Assembly (NCBI RefSeq): GCF_006345805.1
Contig: NW_021827684.1
Location: forward strand, 1 to 9,914
Length of the DNA stretch: 9,914 bases
DNA from: Octopus sinensis
Taxonomy: Eukaryota
Reading direction: 5' to 3'
The notes below the pieces were generated by a model. It was not told the origin of the DNA. It searched no databases and was given only the letters and a program-made list of their open reading frames with translations. Of the stretch, positions 216 through 9,460 are shown one piece after another. Within the stretch, counting starts at the first letter, position 1. Every line of letters begins with the position of its first letter. The position numbers and the translations under genes are program-made.

Positions 216-456
216 TCCGAATGTGTGTACGCACGTGTTAACGTTGTTCTTTTTCTTTTTCTTTCTTTTTTCTTATTTGTATCTATATACACACGCGCGC
301 ATGTAGACATGCACCCCCATTATTACGTTCATTTTGTGCTGGTTCAACTGAGAAAAAATTACTTTGGTAACCATGCCTTAATTCTTGCCGTGATTTTGTG
401 CAAGTTTTCGAAGGCAATTAATTTTCAGTTCGTTCAATCATATATAAAGAGAGTGA

Positions 457-528
457 TATACATACATACACACACATACATACACACACATACACCACAC
501 ACACATACATACATACATATATATATAT

Positions 529-595
<67 letters not shown>

Positions 596-615
596 TATAC
601 ATACATATATATATA

Positions 616-693
<78 letters not shown>

Positions 694-704
694 TATTATA
701 TATG
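457..704. repeat. (CA/TACA)n followed by long (TA)n microsatellite
   Basis: Read directly. It produces the YIYI/HTHT pseudo-ORFs. Confidence 0.97.
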
Positions 705-1650
705 CATATCTGGCACAGGACGTCACGAAAGTGTACAACAAAAAATTCGAATCACGAGTACATGGAACATGAACTAATGGAAAACAAAACAAACAACATA
801 AAGAACGACCCTTCATCAGTTGTCTGTTTTTCTAGTCTCGTATTTCGAGCATTTAACAACAATATACGCTTTCGATAAAACAGGTGCTCCCGCAAAGCAA
901 ATTAAATAATATTTAGGATTTTTGCGGAGGGGCAAAATTGGTAACATAAACAGGACAGTGAAATTAAACAGGAAGTGCTGCTAAGCCTAATCGAAGTAGT
1001 GGTGGCAAACGCGTAATTCAAGCTCGGACAGGAGACGAACAAGAACACGTCTTCCTTGTTCCAGCTACAACGGAGAGAAAGAAATACAAGTTAAGAGAAG
1101 AAAGAAATATGGCCGATGGTCTCGTGGGAGCCACGTAAGCTAGGGAGGAGGAGTGAGGGAGAGAGAGAGAGAGTGACAGAGTAATAGGATAGAATAGTGG
1201 GAGAAGAGGAGGTAAAAGAATAAGATACAAAGGCAAAGAATTCACGAGAAAAATAATTCTTGAAAAATGAATTTACTAAGATATAATTAATCTTGTTATT
1301 ATCTGGAATGACTATTTTAAAAAATTATAAAAACCGAATCAATGATATAGGCGACGCAGACGCGAGAAAAGCATTAAATAGCGGAAGGATTAAAATTAAT
1401 CAAAGGACATACAAAGTATGTCTACCTACTGGAAATAAAAGCCAAAACTCATATTTAAATCGCCAAAATACATTGATAATAACTACAAATCAGGTTAATA
1501 AAATCTCCCAACGTACATTTAAGTATTTGGACTCACGTGGACCGGTTTCTGCACTGGTAAAAAAAATCGCCTTAGCTCCTTCAGATTCCACGATATTTGA
1601 TTTATTTTACTCCATAGCAAGATTGCTGAATTTCCTCTCGCCAAATAAAT
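705..1650 (-). mobile_element. Probable Penelope-like retroelement 3' end (decayed endonuclease C-terminus plus pLTR/3' region) abutting (TA)n
   Basis: Minus-strand translation of ~1650-1530, allowing frameshifts, reads IWREE-x-SAILLWSKINQISWNLKEL..FYQCRNRST*. This resembles the Penelope GIY-YIG tail (LC..EK..I...LN.R.E...CRH). The downstream region carries a hammerhead core at 808-868, and hammerheads are typical of Penelope pLTRs. Family assignment is inference. Confidence 0.45.
808..868 (-). ncRNA. Candidate rearranged (non-circularly permuted) hammerhead ribozyme, copy 1
   Basis: Minus strand: CGUAU-A-UUGUU-guuaaau-GCUC-GAA-AUACG-agacuagaaaaaca-GACAA-CUGAUGA-A-GGGU. Stem III is CGUAU/AUACG, stem I is UUGUU/GACAA and stem II is GCUC/GGGU. 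The AUA triplet is at 865-863. Confidence 0.6.
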
Positions 1651-2060: not shown

Positions 2061-2260
2061 TTGTTTTTCTAAAAATCTTTTTTCGTTTTTTTAATGGATT
2101 GACACGATTTCTATGTAAAAAAAAGTCATTGATTAAGTATAGTCATGCCTCGCTGCTTTTTGGTTATGTCGCCAATGATTAGGCTCGATTTAAAAAAAAC
2201 AATGCACACACATAAAGGAGGTGCTATAGTACTATTCCACAGCCATACCAACAATCCAAC

Positions 2261-2322
2261 ATGCCCCCATCATCAGCTGCCCTACGGATATCATTATGGT
2301 TTCGACACCTGGGCAGTACCAT
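2261..2322 (-). ncRNA. Candidate rearranged (non-circularly permuted) hammerhead ribozyme, copy 2
   Basis: Minus strand: AUGGU-A-CUGCCC-aggu-GUC-GAA-ACCAU-aaugauauccgua-GGGCAG-CUGAUGA-U-GGGGGCAU. Stem III AUGGU/ACCAU and stem I CUGCCC/GGGCAG are both perfect. The GUA triplet is at 2319-2317. Stem II is short. Confidence 0.65.
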
Positions 2323-2369
2323 TCAATCCGGCAGTGTCAACAGCACTAAAATAAGTGTTGATTGGGAAC

Positions 2370-3415: not shown

Positions 3416-3477
3416 CTAAAATTTTAAAGCAAACAGCGTCACTGCTGAGATTAGAGATTTGTATTAGTTGATATTTT

Positions 3478-4460
3478 AGAATAGAGGATTGTATAGAGAA
3501 GGAGATAACTCCTAGCATACCACTTCTGAGGAATATTCATGAAAGAATGTTGCAGGCTGCACTGAGTGAGAAAGTGATCAGTGACGATGGTGAGACCCTC
3601 CAGGAGTACAATATAAGGATTAATAGAGAAAAGATCATCAAATGCAAAGAGAAAGTCATATACAGTGAGTTGTTTCTTTAGCAAACATCAGATGAAGCTG
3701 ATGAAGAATCCTGGAAACGATTAAAGCATGTTTTTTTTTAAAGAAGGGGGCAAAAGGACTGATTGTTGCTGCTCAAGAACAAGTTTTATGAACCAACTCA
3801 GTCGGGAATAGCATTGATAAGACAGCAGTATCACCTTTGTATAGATTATGTAGAAAGTCATCCGAGACAATTGGACATATGATCAGTGGATGCTAAAAAC
3901 CGACCTAAAAGGAGAACAAAAGCACCATGACAAAATGGTAGTGCAAATACACTGGGAGTTGTGCGGGAATTATGGGCTAGAATGTTCCAACAAATGGTAT
4001 GAGCACCAACCTTTGCCAGTAGCAGAGAATAATCAAGTGAAACTCATACGGGATAAACGAATATACACAGACAAAAAGCTGTGACACAACCGACCAGATA
4101 ACACTGTCCTACGTAAGGAATCCAAAACAACGGACCTTCATCAACGTAGCTTTACCTGCAAACCAGAATATTGTGAATACAAAAAAAAAAAGAAAGGAAG
4201 TCGAGAAATACCAAGACCTAGCATAGGAAGTGAAATGCATCCATAGAGACTCAAAAGTAAGTGTGGTATCTATTGTGATCAGTGCACTTGGGACCATCTC
4301 AAAGAAAGCAATGTTCTGGCATCAAAAGCTACAGATACCAGAACTTAGGAAGTATTTTCAGTTGGCAGCAGTACTTGGAACAGCTCGTTTGTAGAAAAGT
4401 GTTGCATCTCTAAGCTGTGGGAGGGGAGCTGAGATGTGACATAGATAACTCAGGAGAAGA
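3478..4460 (+). mobile_element. 5'-truncated, decayed R4/Dong-clade non-LTR retrotransposon (post-RT region, CCHC knuckle, restriction-like endonuclease, short 3' UTR), copy 1
   Basis: Translation across stops and frameshifts: RIEDCIEKE..LLRNIHERMLQAALSEKVI..QTSDEADEESWK..GLIVAAQEQVL*TN..(Y)RLCRKSSETIGHMISGC..HHDKMVVQIHWELCGNYGL..WYEHQP..NRPD..VEKYQDLA..VVSIVISALGT..LGTAR..KVLHL* (stop 4411-4413). Followed by taataa. Confidence 0.9.
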
Positions 4461-4564: not shown

Positions 4565-4612
4565 CAACAACAACAACAACAATAATAATAATAATGATAA
4601 TAATAATAATAA
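4461..4612. repeat. Compound (CTA)n-(AAT)n-(AAC)n-(AAT)n microsatellite between two Dong-like copies
   Basis: Read directly. Confidence 0.97.
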
Positions 4613-5645
4613 TATGTACCAAGAAAAAGGGGGAAGAGAACTTATTGGATGCGAACACAGCTTTAGAGCAAAAGAAAACAACATAGCATAGGATGTAAAA
4701 AAATGCCACATAACCGTTAATATTAGAAGTAGGAAGGTCAGGTTTGTGTAGGATGAAAGATTGCAAAGATAAAGCATTATACAAGCAACTGAAAAAAAAA
4801 ATGAAACTGAAAATAGGTGGGTAAAGAAAATAATGCATGGACAATTTCATAGGGAAGTTGAAGATAAGACAGTCAGAAGAAAGGTGGCTGTGGATGACTA
4901 AAGGTGATTTAAAATCGGAAACGGAGGCTCTAATCTGTGCTGCCCAAGAGCAAGCACTAAGAACAAACTACATAAAATACAAAATAGACAACACAGCAGA
5001 AAGTGATAAGTGCAGAATCTGTGGAAAAAACGGTGAAAGCGTATGGCATATTACCAGCCAATGTACGCCACTAGCCCAAAAGGAATATAAGAGACACCAC
5101 GACAATATAGCCAGGCTTGTCCATTGGACACTTTGCAACAAGTATGGACTTGACAGAGCAAAAAATTGGTACGACCACAACCTGAAAATGTCGTCGAAAA
5201 TAGAAATGCGAAGATCCTATGGGATTTTGATTCAGTGCGACAATGAGATTGAGAATAGGAAGCCGGACATAGTCTTATTTGAGAAAGAAAACAAACTATG
5301 CTGGATCATAGATATAGCATGCCCAACAAGGTATGTGATAAGGAAGAAAGAAAAGTTGAGCGATATGACAGGTTAGCTTGGGAGGTTAAGCAGTTGTGGT
5401 TAATGAAAATGGTAGCAGTAGTACCAGTAATTGTTGGAGCCCTGGAAACAGAGAAAAGATCTTGAGAAATACGTGGAACAAATAAGGACTGCAATAAGGG
5501 TTGAGCACTTGCAGAAAACAGTACTGCTTGGAACCGCTCGAATACTCCGGAAGGTGCTCGAAAAATAAGAGGCGTTATCTTAGTTCATTGGTAGTGAACA
5601 GCTGACACTGTAGTACATCTCCAGCGTTAGAAGCTGTGCAAAGGC
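4613..5645 (+). mobile_element. 5'-truncated R4/Dong-clade non-LTR retrotransposon pseudogene, copy 2 (different subfamily, better preserved)
   Basis: YVPRK-GGRELI..MHGQFHRE..WLWMTKGDLKSETEALICAAQEQALRTN; CCHC knuckle CRICGKNGESVWHITSQC; HHDNIARLVHW; RLE core RKPDIV...IIDIACP...KVERYDRL; VVPVIVGAL; LQKTVLLGTARILRKVLEK* (stop 5566-5568). Flanked on both sides by (AAT)n. Confidence 0.93.
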
Positions 5646-6247: not shown

Positions 6248-6422
6248 CTCTTTTACTCTTTTACTTGCTTCAGTCATTTGACTGCGGCCATGCTGGAGCA
6301 CCGCCTTTAGTCGAGCAGATCGACCCCAGGACTTATTCTTTGTAAGCCTAGTACTTATACTATCAGTCTCTTTTGCCGAACCGCTAAGTTACGGGGACGT
6401 AAACACACCAGCATCGGTTGTC
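6248..6422 (-). mobile_element. SINE family A, 3' half with (gtaaaaga)n tail
   Basis: Matches 1900-2050. The tail reads ctcttttactcttttac on the + strand. Confidence 0.9.
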
Positions 6423-6597
6423 GGAGTGGCTGCATGGTAAGTAGCTTGCTTACGAACTACATGGTTCCGGGTTCAGTCCCACTGCGTGGTACTTTGGGCA
6501 AGTTTCTCTTCTACAATAGCCTCGGGCCAACCAAAGCCTTGTGAGTGGATTTGGTAGACGGAAACTGAAAGAAGCCCATCGTATGTATATATATATA

Positions 6598-6788: not shown

Positions 6789-7003
6789 CCCTTCTAGCAT
6801 AGGCACAAGGCCTGAAATATTGGGGAGGGTACTAGTCAATTAAATCGATCCAGTATTTCACTGGTACTTAATTTATCAAACTCCCGAGAGGAATGAAAGC
6901 AAAGTCAACCTCGGCGGAATTTGAACTCCGAACGAAGCGACGGGCGAAATACCGCTAAGCATTTCGTCCCAGCGCGCTGACGATTCTGCCAGCTTGCCGC
7001 CTT
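6789..7003 (-). mobile_element. Second tRNA-derived SINE family, near full length
   Basis: The minus strand starts aaggcggcaagctggcagaatcg (A box-like) and has B box gagttcaaattcc. It continues gccgaggttgactttgctttcattcc...gataaattaagtaccag, resembling the conserved central domain of Nin/Deu/Meta-type SINEs (from memory). Confidence 0.85.
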
Positions 7004-7213: not shown

Positions 7214-8194
7214 GGCGATCTTTCGTCTCTAGTACACCTTTCCGTCGATTTCCGTAAAAATTTTTTTTTTTACATATGGGCTTGCGGGAACTTTTGAAGT
7301 AATATACATACATATACATATACACATACACCGAGTAAAAAATTTCAGTTATCTCTTTCTTTCACACATTACTTCTGTATCTTCACACACACTAACAGAA
7401 GCACTTCACTTACACAACATACTGTCTGTCTCCCACACCCCATCAAACACACACACACACACACACATGTACATCAATGCTCCCATGCACGGTAACTTCA
7501 AAAGAACTTCCCTCATCATACAATCGCTTTCTCTTAGTCACTTTCGCTCTCATTACTTTGTAGTGATCCTATAACGGCGCGCGCTCGCGCACCGCCCATT
7601 TGTATTTCGCGCGTGTTGGTGCCTTTACCAAGGCAGAGAGAGGAAGGGCCCTCTCGCGCATGCGCGAAGCACCGGAAGAAGAACCCTTTTGCCTACGTAG
7701 CAGTTAGCCGAGGCAAGGGGGTCGTAAGACGTTGACCACCAGCGTCCAGCAGCAGCGGCGACTTGGGACGGCAGCGATTGAAGGAGACGGTCACGCATAT
7801 TTTCTCTCCGTTCGAACTTGCTTCTAGCAGTCCTTACCAAAAGGCCTTTAACCTGGATTGTTGCAGACATCATCTTCTTCCTCCTGACGCCATTTTGACC
7901 CGTTCTGTTTTTGGCGGCTGAACATTGTAAATATTACAATCGATTAACTTTCAGCCTTGCGCGCCCAGAACCAAGGACATCAGATAACACACTTATTGTT
8001 ACTGTTACCAAGAAAGAGAATCTGGATTATTAAAGCAACGGCTAGTGATTGCCTCTTGCACCCCAAAAGTGCAAGAGAAGATACACTCACTAAGTTCGTT
8101 ACAACTTCAAAAGTTCCCGCAAGCCCATATGTAAAAAGAAAAAAAAAATTTTACGGAAATCGACGGAAAGGTCTACTAGAGACGAAAGATTGCC
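7214..8194. mobile_element. Non-autonomous DNA transposon with ~87-91 bp TIRs
   Basis: 7214-7300 (ggcgatctttcgtctctagtacacc...gggaacttttgaagt) is the reverse complement of 8104-8194, with 2 substitutions plus differences in the A/T runs. Flanking direct repeat aagtcatttg at 7204-7213 and 8198-8207. No transposase ORF is visible. Confidence 0.92.
7570..7920. promoter_or_regulatory. CpG-rich promoter-like segment inside the TIR element
   Basis: Marked GC/CpG enrichment relative to the flanks. Perfect palindrome tcgcgcatgcgcga at 7654-7667 (NRF1-type GCGCATGCGC), ETS-type accggaag at 7671-7678, YY1-type cgccattttg at 7888-7897. Confidence 0.5.
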
Positions 8195-8586: not shown

Positions 8587-9460
8587 ATGAAGAAGAAAGC
8601 AATAGAGGGTGAATTTCGTTCTGCAAGCCTCGGGCGATCGCGATACGAAAGAAGCCGTAGCATACGTTCAGGGACGGTGCTTTGTCAACACATTAACGCT
8701 GTAAATATGGACCTATCTTTTAATGTCACTACCCAAAACGGACAACAAAGCCAGAAGAGAACGATGGACCGATGACGACTACCTTGAAGTGATATATGCA
8801 TTCTACAATGCAGCACTATACCCAAAACGGATCTTTTCGCTTTGACCGGCAGATTTTTAAAATAATTTCTTTGTAACTAAACACTTTTAAACTTCGTATA
8901 CTGGTAGAATGTGTTTTATAAAACATCTTTTTCTCTTGGCTTTCTTGAGAAAATTCTGCAGTTTGTAAGCTATTTGTTCTTTAATTTCTTGCATTTCGGC
9001 AATTTCAACCAATCAATGACGTCTATTGAGGTGAATTCAATTTCAGCCGGAAAATGTTGTTGCCAGAAAATGTTGTTGACAACGATCCGGCAGAAATTGA
9101 ATTCACCTCAATAGACGTCATTGATTGGTTGAAATTGCCGAAATGCAAGAAATTAAAGAACAAATAGCTTACAAACTGCAGAATTTTCTCAAGAAAGCCA
9201 AGTGAAAAAGATGTTTTATAAACACATTCTACAAGTATACGAAGTTTAAAAGTGTTTAGTTACAAAGAAGTTATTTTAAAAATCTGCCGGCAAAAGCGAA
9301 AAGATCCCCCAAAACACACAGGAATAATAATAAAAAAAAACATGAGATACGGAAGAAAAATAATAAAAGTATAAGGAAAAACAAAATACTATTTCAAATG
9401 TCCGACGATACATGATAGAGAAGGGAAAGTCTCCAAAACCGAAATAGACAAATTCCTACT
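8587..9460 (+). pseudogene. Decayed N-terminal region of an R4/Dong-like ORF, interrupted by the MITE
   Basis: 8723-8828 reads MSLPKTDNKARRERWTDDDYLEVIYAFYNAALYPK. After removing the MITE and one TSD it continues, with frameshifts, HEIRKKNNKSIR..SNVRRYMIEKGK-VSKTEIDKF. This resembles the R4/Dong N-terminal pattern R..WT.E....V..C/AYY...YEIW....LANVRR.I....L...E. Recognised from memory; start uncertain. Confidence 0.6.
8829..9307. mobile_element. Foldback MITE: ~222-bp inverted arms, 34-bp spacer, 8-bp TSD cccaaaac
   Basis: 8829-9051 is the reverse complement of 9086-9307 with about 7 differences. Termini are ggatcttttcg...cgaaaagatcc. The sequence cccaaaac is at 8821-8828 and 9308-9315. Confidence 0.97.

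Follow-up and report, generated by a model that had tools for sequence, protein, structure and literature searches.

Non-circularly permuted hammerhead ribozymes have been described as type SGC (HRIMA-1) and type CSG, and type SGC cleaves in vitro (Eckert et al. 2023, PMC10085705). In the accessible part of that report, the SGC examples come from metatranscriptomes and the CSG examples from metagenomes, and a search of RefSeq 85 for SGC gave none in known organisms. The minimal type I hammerheads of Penelope-like elements (PLEs) have an extra nucleotide between A9 and G10.1 and a G10.1-C11.1 pair, and read-through or circular templates have been proposed to give tandem copies (PMC4209133, in excerpt). 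For the Poseidon element, the available text of PMC11167929 describes internal initiation that gives the tail, and a hammerhead that needed protein and was dispensable for insertion in vitro. Naiad PLEs are described, in the part of Craig et al. (2021, PMC8557442) available to us, as being without a canonical hammerhead, with eight of them flagged as containing a "half core" whose second half lies 35-50 nt away on either side. A 2026 preprint on retrozymes (bioRxiv 10.64898/2026.07.22.740005) uses, in its accessible part, type I models only, and another 2026 paper, as excerpted, cites the non-circular permutations merely in passing. Our search of open-access PubMed Central and bioRxiv returned no paper that places SGC or CSG hammerheads in Naiads or in any eukaryotic genome. 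Here, we describe a motif with the SGC order in a high-copy repeat of Octopus sinensis.

The motif at 868-808 and the repeats around it

The window, i.e. the whole stretch of 9,914 nt that was analyzed, contains all hammerhead core bases on its minus strand at 868-808, with the blocks in the order S-G-C (cleavage site, GAAA, CUGAUGA). Judged by its sequence, this order is a non-circular permutation, a type SGC hammerhead, and the cut in the window copy is predicted at 863/862. The features referred to below are the following:

431..444, minus strand: remnant of the "head" segment, repeated as a 3' tail on the far side of (TA)n
460..703, no strand assigned: (CA)n/(TA)n tract, which in longer copies lies inside the unit
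705..1225, minus strand: body of family A (subfamily A1), a 5'-truncated non-coding retroelement unit
808..824, minus strand: Block C, with a stem I strand, CUGAUGA 819-813, extra A 812 and stem II strand 811-808
839..850, minus strand: Block G, with stem II strand 850-847, GAAA 846-843 and stem III strand 842-839
857..868, minus strand: Block S, with stem III strand 868-864 (U16.1 = 864), A17 = 863 and stem I strand 862-857
824..883, minus strand: helix P0 (883-877 with 830-824), 7 bp, which extends stem III through an internal loop
1224..1584, minus strand: family B, a separate tandem-unit repeat, 5'-truncated, abutting family A with an overlap of 2 nt
1533..1584, minus strand: decayed hammerhead motif in canonical order, belonging to family B (type I-like; 24 of the 25 B copies could be parsed)
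2221..2364, minus strand: fragment of a Naiad PLE 3' UTR, with S 2322-2311, G 2306-2296 and C 2282-2267

A descriptor for all six block orders, with an extra base allowed, matched the entire window at 868-808 only, and any six-order match was absent from all of 3000 dinucleotide shuffles of 705-1650. The G811-C847 pair is present beside the single extra A (812). Relaxing stem II to 2 bp revealed one further window site, also S-G-C, at 2318/2303/2276; applied to 53 other loci, the relaxed descriptor returned four Naiad motifs and one canonical hammerhead, and nothing else. An Rfam scan of the window at E<=1 gave no match to a hammerhead family, which is expected because the block order is pseudoknotted. 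The original prediction of a rearranged hammerhead within 705..1650 is thus borne out by the complete core, the S-G-C order, the single descriptor match and the shuffles, and so are the distances that it gave (measured here as ~103 nt to the (TA)n tract and 665 nt from the QCRNRST* stop). The bulged stem I of 8 bp that it drew has to be given up, as it is the product of a 3-nt deletion in the Block C strand that is private to the window copy and leaves 4-5 bp, and it borrows an AAAC strand that belongs to helix P0; the family has 6 bp.

A genome search with 705-1000 gave 3360 first-look candidates, 40 of which were scored. Besides the window, 29 loci align with ~700-1225 at 81-88% identity, and all of them end there. 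A 20-nt motif of subfamily A1 had 454 exact matches in the genome (control 0). Two further subfamilies were found, A2 with 2779 search candidates and A3 with 903 exact genome matches to a 19-nt motif (control 0), and the pairs of subfamilies compared are 68-76% identical. The family A unit has no ORF, measures ~0.7-1 kb and is present in many hundreds of copies. It is circularly arranged: the head segment opens long copies and recurs as a tail behind the (TA)n tract in 5/30 A1, 4/30 A2 and 10/65 A3 copies. Among 30 head sites, 19 end at or just after ~12 nt past the head motif and 11 continue into the unit, five of the latter following a previous unit head-to-tail. Head-to-tail periods range from 660 to 983 nt (7 copies), and inverted 5' pieces occur in 3/30 A1 and 14/65 A3 copies. 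At one head motif (L399:1500), the tail ends right after what looks like a 5' splice donor; the 5' regions of Penelope elements are reported to contain an intron. Loose ends in RNA reads and the downstream flank of L037 show signs of further family-A-like subfamilies.

Family A has the features of a non-autonomous Penelope-like unit: it forms partial tandems, is truncated at the 5' end, carries inverted 5' pieces and a 3' tail, and sits at microsatellite targets. The insertion traits given for PLEs in the accessible part of PMC8557442 match the 5' truncation, partial tandems, inversions, tail and (TA)n of family A. A search for reverse transcriptase (RT) at 225 family A loci found none, and the only RT among the 30 head loci belongs to a separate Neptune-type element. 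Since no ORF with RT and GIY-YIG, as in an autonomous PLE, was found attached at any of the 225 loci, family A is better described as a non-autonomous unit than as a demonstrated pLTR.

Family A stops at ~1225 and is followed by the unrelated repeat family B (1224-1584), for which 1277 genome candidates were found, with a period of 455-480 in 4 copies. The two are hardly associated elsewhere, with a B match at 1/254 A loci and an A match at 0/34 B loci; their junction in the window arose either by a template jump or by a later insertion. The decayed stretch that had been read as ending in QCRNRST*, and as a possible end of a GIY-YIG protein, lies in a frame full of stops, and its DNA (1556-1533) corresponds to the G and S blocks of the family B motif, i.e. 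the GAAA-CCGG-UC|CACG half. A frame of 121 aa on the opposite strand (1287-1652) gave only a sub-threshold Pfam match. In the 24 parsed copies of the family B motif, CUGANGA is found in 18, GAAA in 22 and the palindromic CCGG-UC in 17; 19 of them form five or all six of the stem I pairs. Core position 7 varies freely, and stem II is irregular at its base, with A opposite A in the window (1533-1584). With its palindromic stem III, family B fits the class of minimal type I Penelope hammerheads, as far as these are set out in the excerpt of PMC4209133.

The assignment of 705-1650 to a PLE therefore holds for the insertion structure and fails for the boundaries and for the GIY-YIG link through QCRNRST*: the stretch is not one element, the (TA)n tract is not its end, as the first segment of the unit recurs behind it (444-431 in the window), and extension of the family led to no attached RT and GIY-YIG ORF. 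The tandem structure that was looked for is present in the head-to-tail copies.

Canonical minimal type I hammerheads were also seen in other repeats, in the flanks of L040, L034 and L002 and at L118:1375, and one of these repeats has the GCUC-GAAA block common to A1 and A3. Elsewhere in the window there are two decayed 3' parts of non-LTR retrotransposons with trinucleotide-repeat ends (3450-4420 and 4610-5640, plus strand; zf-RVT match at E 7e-4, below the cut-off), and a long inverted repeat at 8829-9307 with arms of 137 nt (99%) and 88 nt (95%), which is MITE- or foldback-like. Very common SINE-like repeats, found in many of the fetched loci, lie at ~1700-2060, 2370-2520, 6260-6580 and 6800-7000, and 7560-7930 is richer in GC.

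Naiad elements and a probable mobilizing partner

The second S-G-C motif of the window, likely the "copy 2" of the original prediction, has its cut predicted at 2317/2316. The repeat at 2364-2221 has 1753 genome candidates; its 3' end is sharp and is followed by (AT)n, and its 5' ends vary. The motif lies downstream of the RT, on the RT strand, at 12 of 30 Naiad RT loci and also at L103, and by eye Naiad_Obim and Naiad_Ovul, from the PMC8557442 supplement, agree with it both in RT DNA and at the 3' end. Pfam gave no RT match on the decayed RT pieces upstream of the Naiad 3' UTR. The stems differ wholly in sequence from those of family A (stem I 6 bp, stem III 5 bp), and the layout is the same; stems I and III are paired in 86-96% across 28 parsed copies, and stem II has 2 bp followed by a mismatch. 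Behind divergent Naiad-like RT loci, related motifs were also seen by eye in 6 of 20 cases. The Naiad copy at 2364-2221 strongly supports the suggestion that this lineage may use a rearranged hammerhead.

The last ~600 nt of 26 of the 54 Naiad consensus entries were surveyed by eye, with names assigned by table order, which proved correct for the entries that were checked. C-S-G with three stems and a bridging helix was recognized in seven (Parc, Nbra-1, -2, -3, Hcon, Hpol, Smim) and S-G-C in two (Obim, Ovul); four others (Lpol, Dst-4, Esco, Chem-3) have S-G-C with stems I and III and an irregular stem II, and the remaining 13 of the 26 ends viewed have no hammerhead recognizable by eye. SGC or CSG in 9/26 ends would explain the "half-core" flag, and of the eight Naiads so flagged five resolve fully by eye, two partly and one not. 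In Naiad-4_Dst and Naiad-3_Chem, S-G-C stems I and III pair well and the strand before GAAA seems, by eye, to pair upstream; these two possibly represent a further hammerhead variant. We consider it likely that pseudoknotted hammerheads with a non-circular permutation are in wide use at the 3' ends of Naiads and of their non-autonomous passengers, with SGC in octopus and CSG in nematodes and a spider.

The enzymes of Naiads probably also copy family A. This partner is proposed because the architecture of the ribozyme is common to both, namely the S-G-C order, the extra base, the short S-G linker and the layout of stem III, internal loop and P0. DNA similarity of family A to 112 Naiad-related loci was absent beyond separate neighboring A copies. 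A direct link to family A was likewise missing in 20 divergent and 30 close Naiad RT loci and in the 30 head loci; the RT beside one family B copy had none either, and an insert in one A2 copy turned out to be another repeat. A decayed Neptune/Poseidon-type Penelope element (L041:7400-8200) is a chance neighbor of B, and another (L426; G000:C1:94154500-94164000), with RT, Cys linker and GIY-YIG-like region, is a chance neighbor of A.

It is possible, though we think it the less probable case, that the ribozyme is correctly identified and that family A is moved by another Penelope clade of the Neptune/Poseidon type, with SGC being independent of the Naiads; this doubt concerns the mobilizing partner only. 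Such a partner would agree with the lack of a sequence link between family A and Naiad loci and with the presence of other PLE RTs in the genome. It leaves unexplained, however, the order, extra base, S-G linker and stem III-P0 layout common to the two, and the sole Neptune-type element beside an A copy, which was tried as partner and rejected, has its own 3' end on the other strand.

Stems, predicted folds and possible traces of cutting

Pairing was counted in copies anchored on the blocks (29/30 A1, 30/30 A2 and 39/47 A3 copies parsed, the 47 being what is left of 65 after 18 copies lacking the upstream flank were dropped). A MAFFT alignment of the three subfamilies sets A2 off by two columns and was left out of the counts. 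At stem III positions 1-4, the commonest pairs are A-U, U-A, G-C and C-G in A1; G-C, C-G, G-C and C-G in A2; and A-U, C-G, U-A and C-G in A3. Stem I is identical among the subfamilies at positions 1-4 and reads, at positions 5-6, U-A and G-C in A1, C-G and C-G in A2, and C-G and G-C in A3. Five of the 10 positions of stems I and III thus differ among the subfamilies, each on both sides and with 0 pairs broken, a compensatory signal of about five events, resting on three related subfamilies. A3 was retrieved with a pattern for block G only, and its block S, which lies outside that pattern, is complementary as predicted. Within the 60 A1 and A2 copies, 89.7% of cells are paired, compared to 39-62% for slid partners, and there are 92 double-change cells versus 41 in shuffles (0/500 reach it), a count that is inflated by kinship; the number of pairs showing a double change is 6, which is at shuffle level (342/500).

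The core is conserved among copies, as the original prediction would have it, with CUGANGA, GAAA and U-H kept in 21, 28 and 28 of 29 in A1 and in 26, 21 and 26 of 30 in A2; the values for A3 are 27 and 35 of 39, GAAA being fixed there by the search pattern. Most individual copies are decayed, and the six-order descriptor is passed by only 8/30 A1 and 13/65 A3 copies. In each of the four families (A1, A2, A3 and Naiad), the commonest state has all catalytic bases and the U-H cleavage triplet (AUA, GUC, AUA and GUA), and variation is confined to free positions and paired stems.

Stem III together with P0 appears in the predicted minimum-energy folds of the window copy and of one copy each of A1, A2 and A3. 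P0 is paired in 94.5% of cells in A1 and A2, without covariation, and has one double change in A3 (by eye). Stem II is weak, 3-4 bp with G-U, and is 94% paired with one-sided changes only and no double change. A helix between the distal ends of stems I and II is 85% paired at the +1 register, with little covariation; one column off it is 38% paired, and the +1 register competes with P0. An alternative helix from RNAalifold (columns 8-11 with 34-37) covaries in A1/A2 and was rejected for a mismatch in A3 seen by eye. The minimum-energy fold of A1, A2, A3 and the consensus, computed with a program that folds nested structures only and not pseudoknots, contains a hairpin (790-823 in the window, minus strand) burying CUGAUGA and the stem I strand, which could act as an off-switch. 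This hairpin and the decay of most copies speak against efficient cutting. Folding z-scores for family A were unremarkable.

Traces of cutting were sought in the 5' ends of genomic copies. Around 14 of the 65 A3 copies picked by block G begin within 12 nt behind the predicted cut (by eye). In a retest, 70 A3 sites were picked by a motif 60 nt further downstream, with few loci overlapping the first set, and 68 were mapped; 9 of 58 at-risk 5' ends fall in the 13 nt behind the cut versus 2.4 expected (p about 0.001), two of them exactly at the predicted cut, and the other 49 copies read through the site. Five of the nine ends sit at AAT/AT and could join (TA)n by microhomology, and in A1 the excess is not clear (2/30). 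Reads of family A are present in three raw RNA runs, and no pile-up of starts or ends was seen at 863/862 in these unstranded, fragmented runs (one study, ~6% read), which have little power. A joint expected of a circular RNA was not among the listed reads either, the two stretches compared being ones that do not cross the unit junction.

These data also suit, to some extent, a fold that is conserved in master copies and is non-catalytic or nearly so, marking where the RT binds or stops, with the excess of 5' ends due to stalling or microhomology. The weak stem II, the conserved hairpin competing for the core, the read-through of most copies (49/58) and the Poseidon hammerhead, which in the available text of PMC11167929 cut only with the help of protein and was dispensable for insertion in vitro, all point in this direction. 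We nevertheless regard it as unlikely, given that the catalytic bases and the U-H triplet are retained as the commonest state in all four families while only other positions vary.

The blocks could also come together from two tandem units, or from two molecules, to act in a canonical nested fold, e.g. S and C with the G of the next unit, so that no pseudoknot would be needed. Head-to-tail copies of family A do exist, the minimal Penelope hammerheads act as dimers (PMC4209133, in excerpt), and stem III of A2 is palindromic. The stems III of A1, A3 and Naiad are not, however, and stem III and P0 form locally inside one unit in the predicted folds; moreover, Naiad_Ovul is listed as being without a pLTR, and the Naiad ends of nematodes and the spider place three stems and the bridging helix within ~80 nt (by eye), which together make a dimeric fold improbable. 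That short motifs fell into this order by chance in AT-rich repeat DNA, as the short stems and the extra base allowed in the descriptor might suggest, is scarcely credible in view of the 0/3000 shuffles, the five double changes with 0 broken pairs, compensatory changes that already contradict it, and the specificity of the relaxed descriptor in the 53 other loci.

A proposed permuted retrozyme and its relatives

Our preferred reading is that 705-1225 is probably a non-coding high-copy repeat with a Penelope-like insertion structure and a conserved SGC hammerhead, predicted to cut RNA as a pseudoknot at 863/862. Family A would then probably be a Penelope-type retroelement of the non-autonomous kind and amount to a retrozyme whose ribozyme is permuted. 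Cutting by its motif is likely only partial. Under this model, transcripts longer than one unit would be cut slowly and partially by the ribozyme. Uncut or re-joined (circular) RNA would give more-than-unit copies that read through the site, and cut RNA would give copies with a 5' end just behind it, often with a fold-back inversion. Reverse transcription would begin internally, ~12 nt past the head motif, and thereby produce the tail.

If the reading is correct, non-circularly permuted hammerheads would for the first time be known from chromosomes and from eukaryotes, in thousands of copies, and the permuted hammerheads of Naiads would have gone unnoticed because only nested descriptors were used. 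An animal genome with such permutations supplies a host, their genetic setting and numerous natural variants, whereas the examples of 2023 had no identified host. Naiads are said to thrive without the hammerhead of other PLEs, a published puzzle to which a permuted form would be an answer; the ribozyme would then be more general to the class, and genome-wide censuses would have overlooked a topology.

Compared to the available description of type SGC in PMC10085705, the family A motif has the same S-G-C order, a full core, a short linker between stems I and II and a size of ~60 nt, and validated type SGC has the same short S-to-G linker. Family A differs in being chromosomal and high-copy and in its Penelope-type extra base, weak stem II and P0, and it has no well-supported helix bridging stems I and II. 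With the minimal type I Penelope hammerheads, as excerpted from PMC4209133, it has in common the extra base between A9 and G10.1 and the G10.1-C11.1 pair, and it departs from them in its full 5-bp stem III and non-nested order. It resembles the Naiads, as far as the seen part of PMC8557442 describes them, in (TA)n, 5' truncation, partial tandems, inversions and tail; unlike them, it encodes no GIY-YIG or RT, and it has no DNA similarity to the Naiad loci compared. The non-LTR retrozymes of the 2026 preprint are, in its accessible part, likewise non-coding tandem units with one hammerhead per unit and presumably PLE-mobilized, but their hammerheads are type I, whereas the order in family A is SGC and its units of 0.7-1 kb are mostly dispersed and truncated. 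The topology of the ribozyme is known; the kind of host and of element in which it is found here is new.
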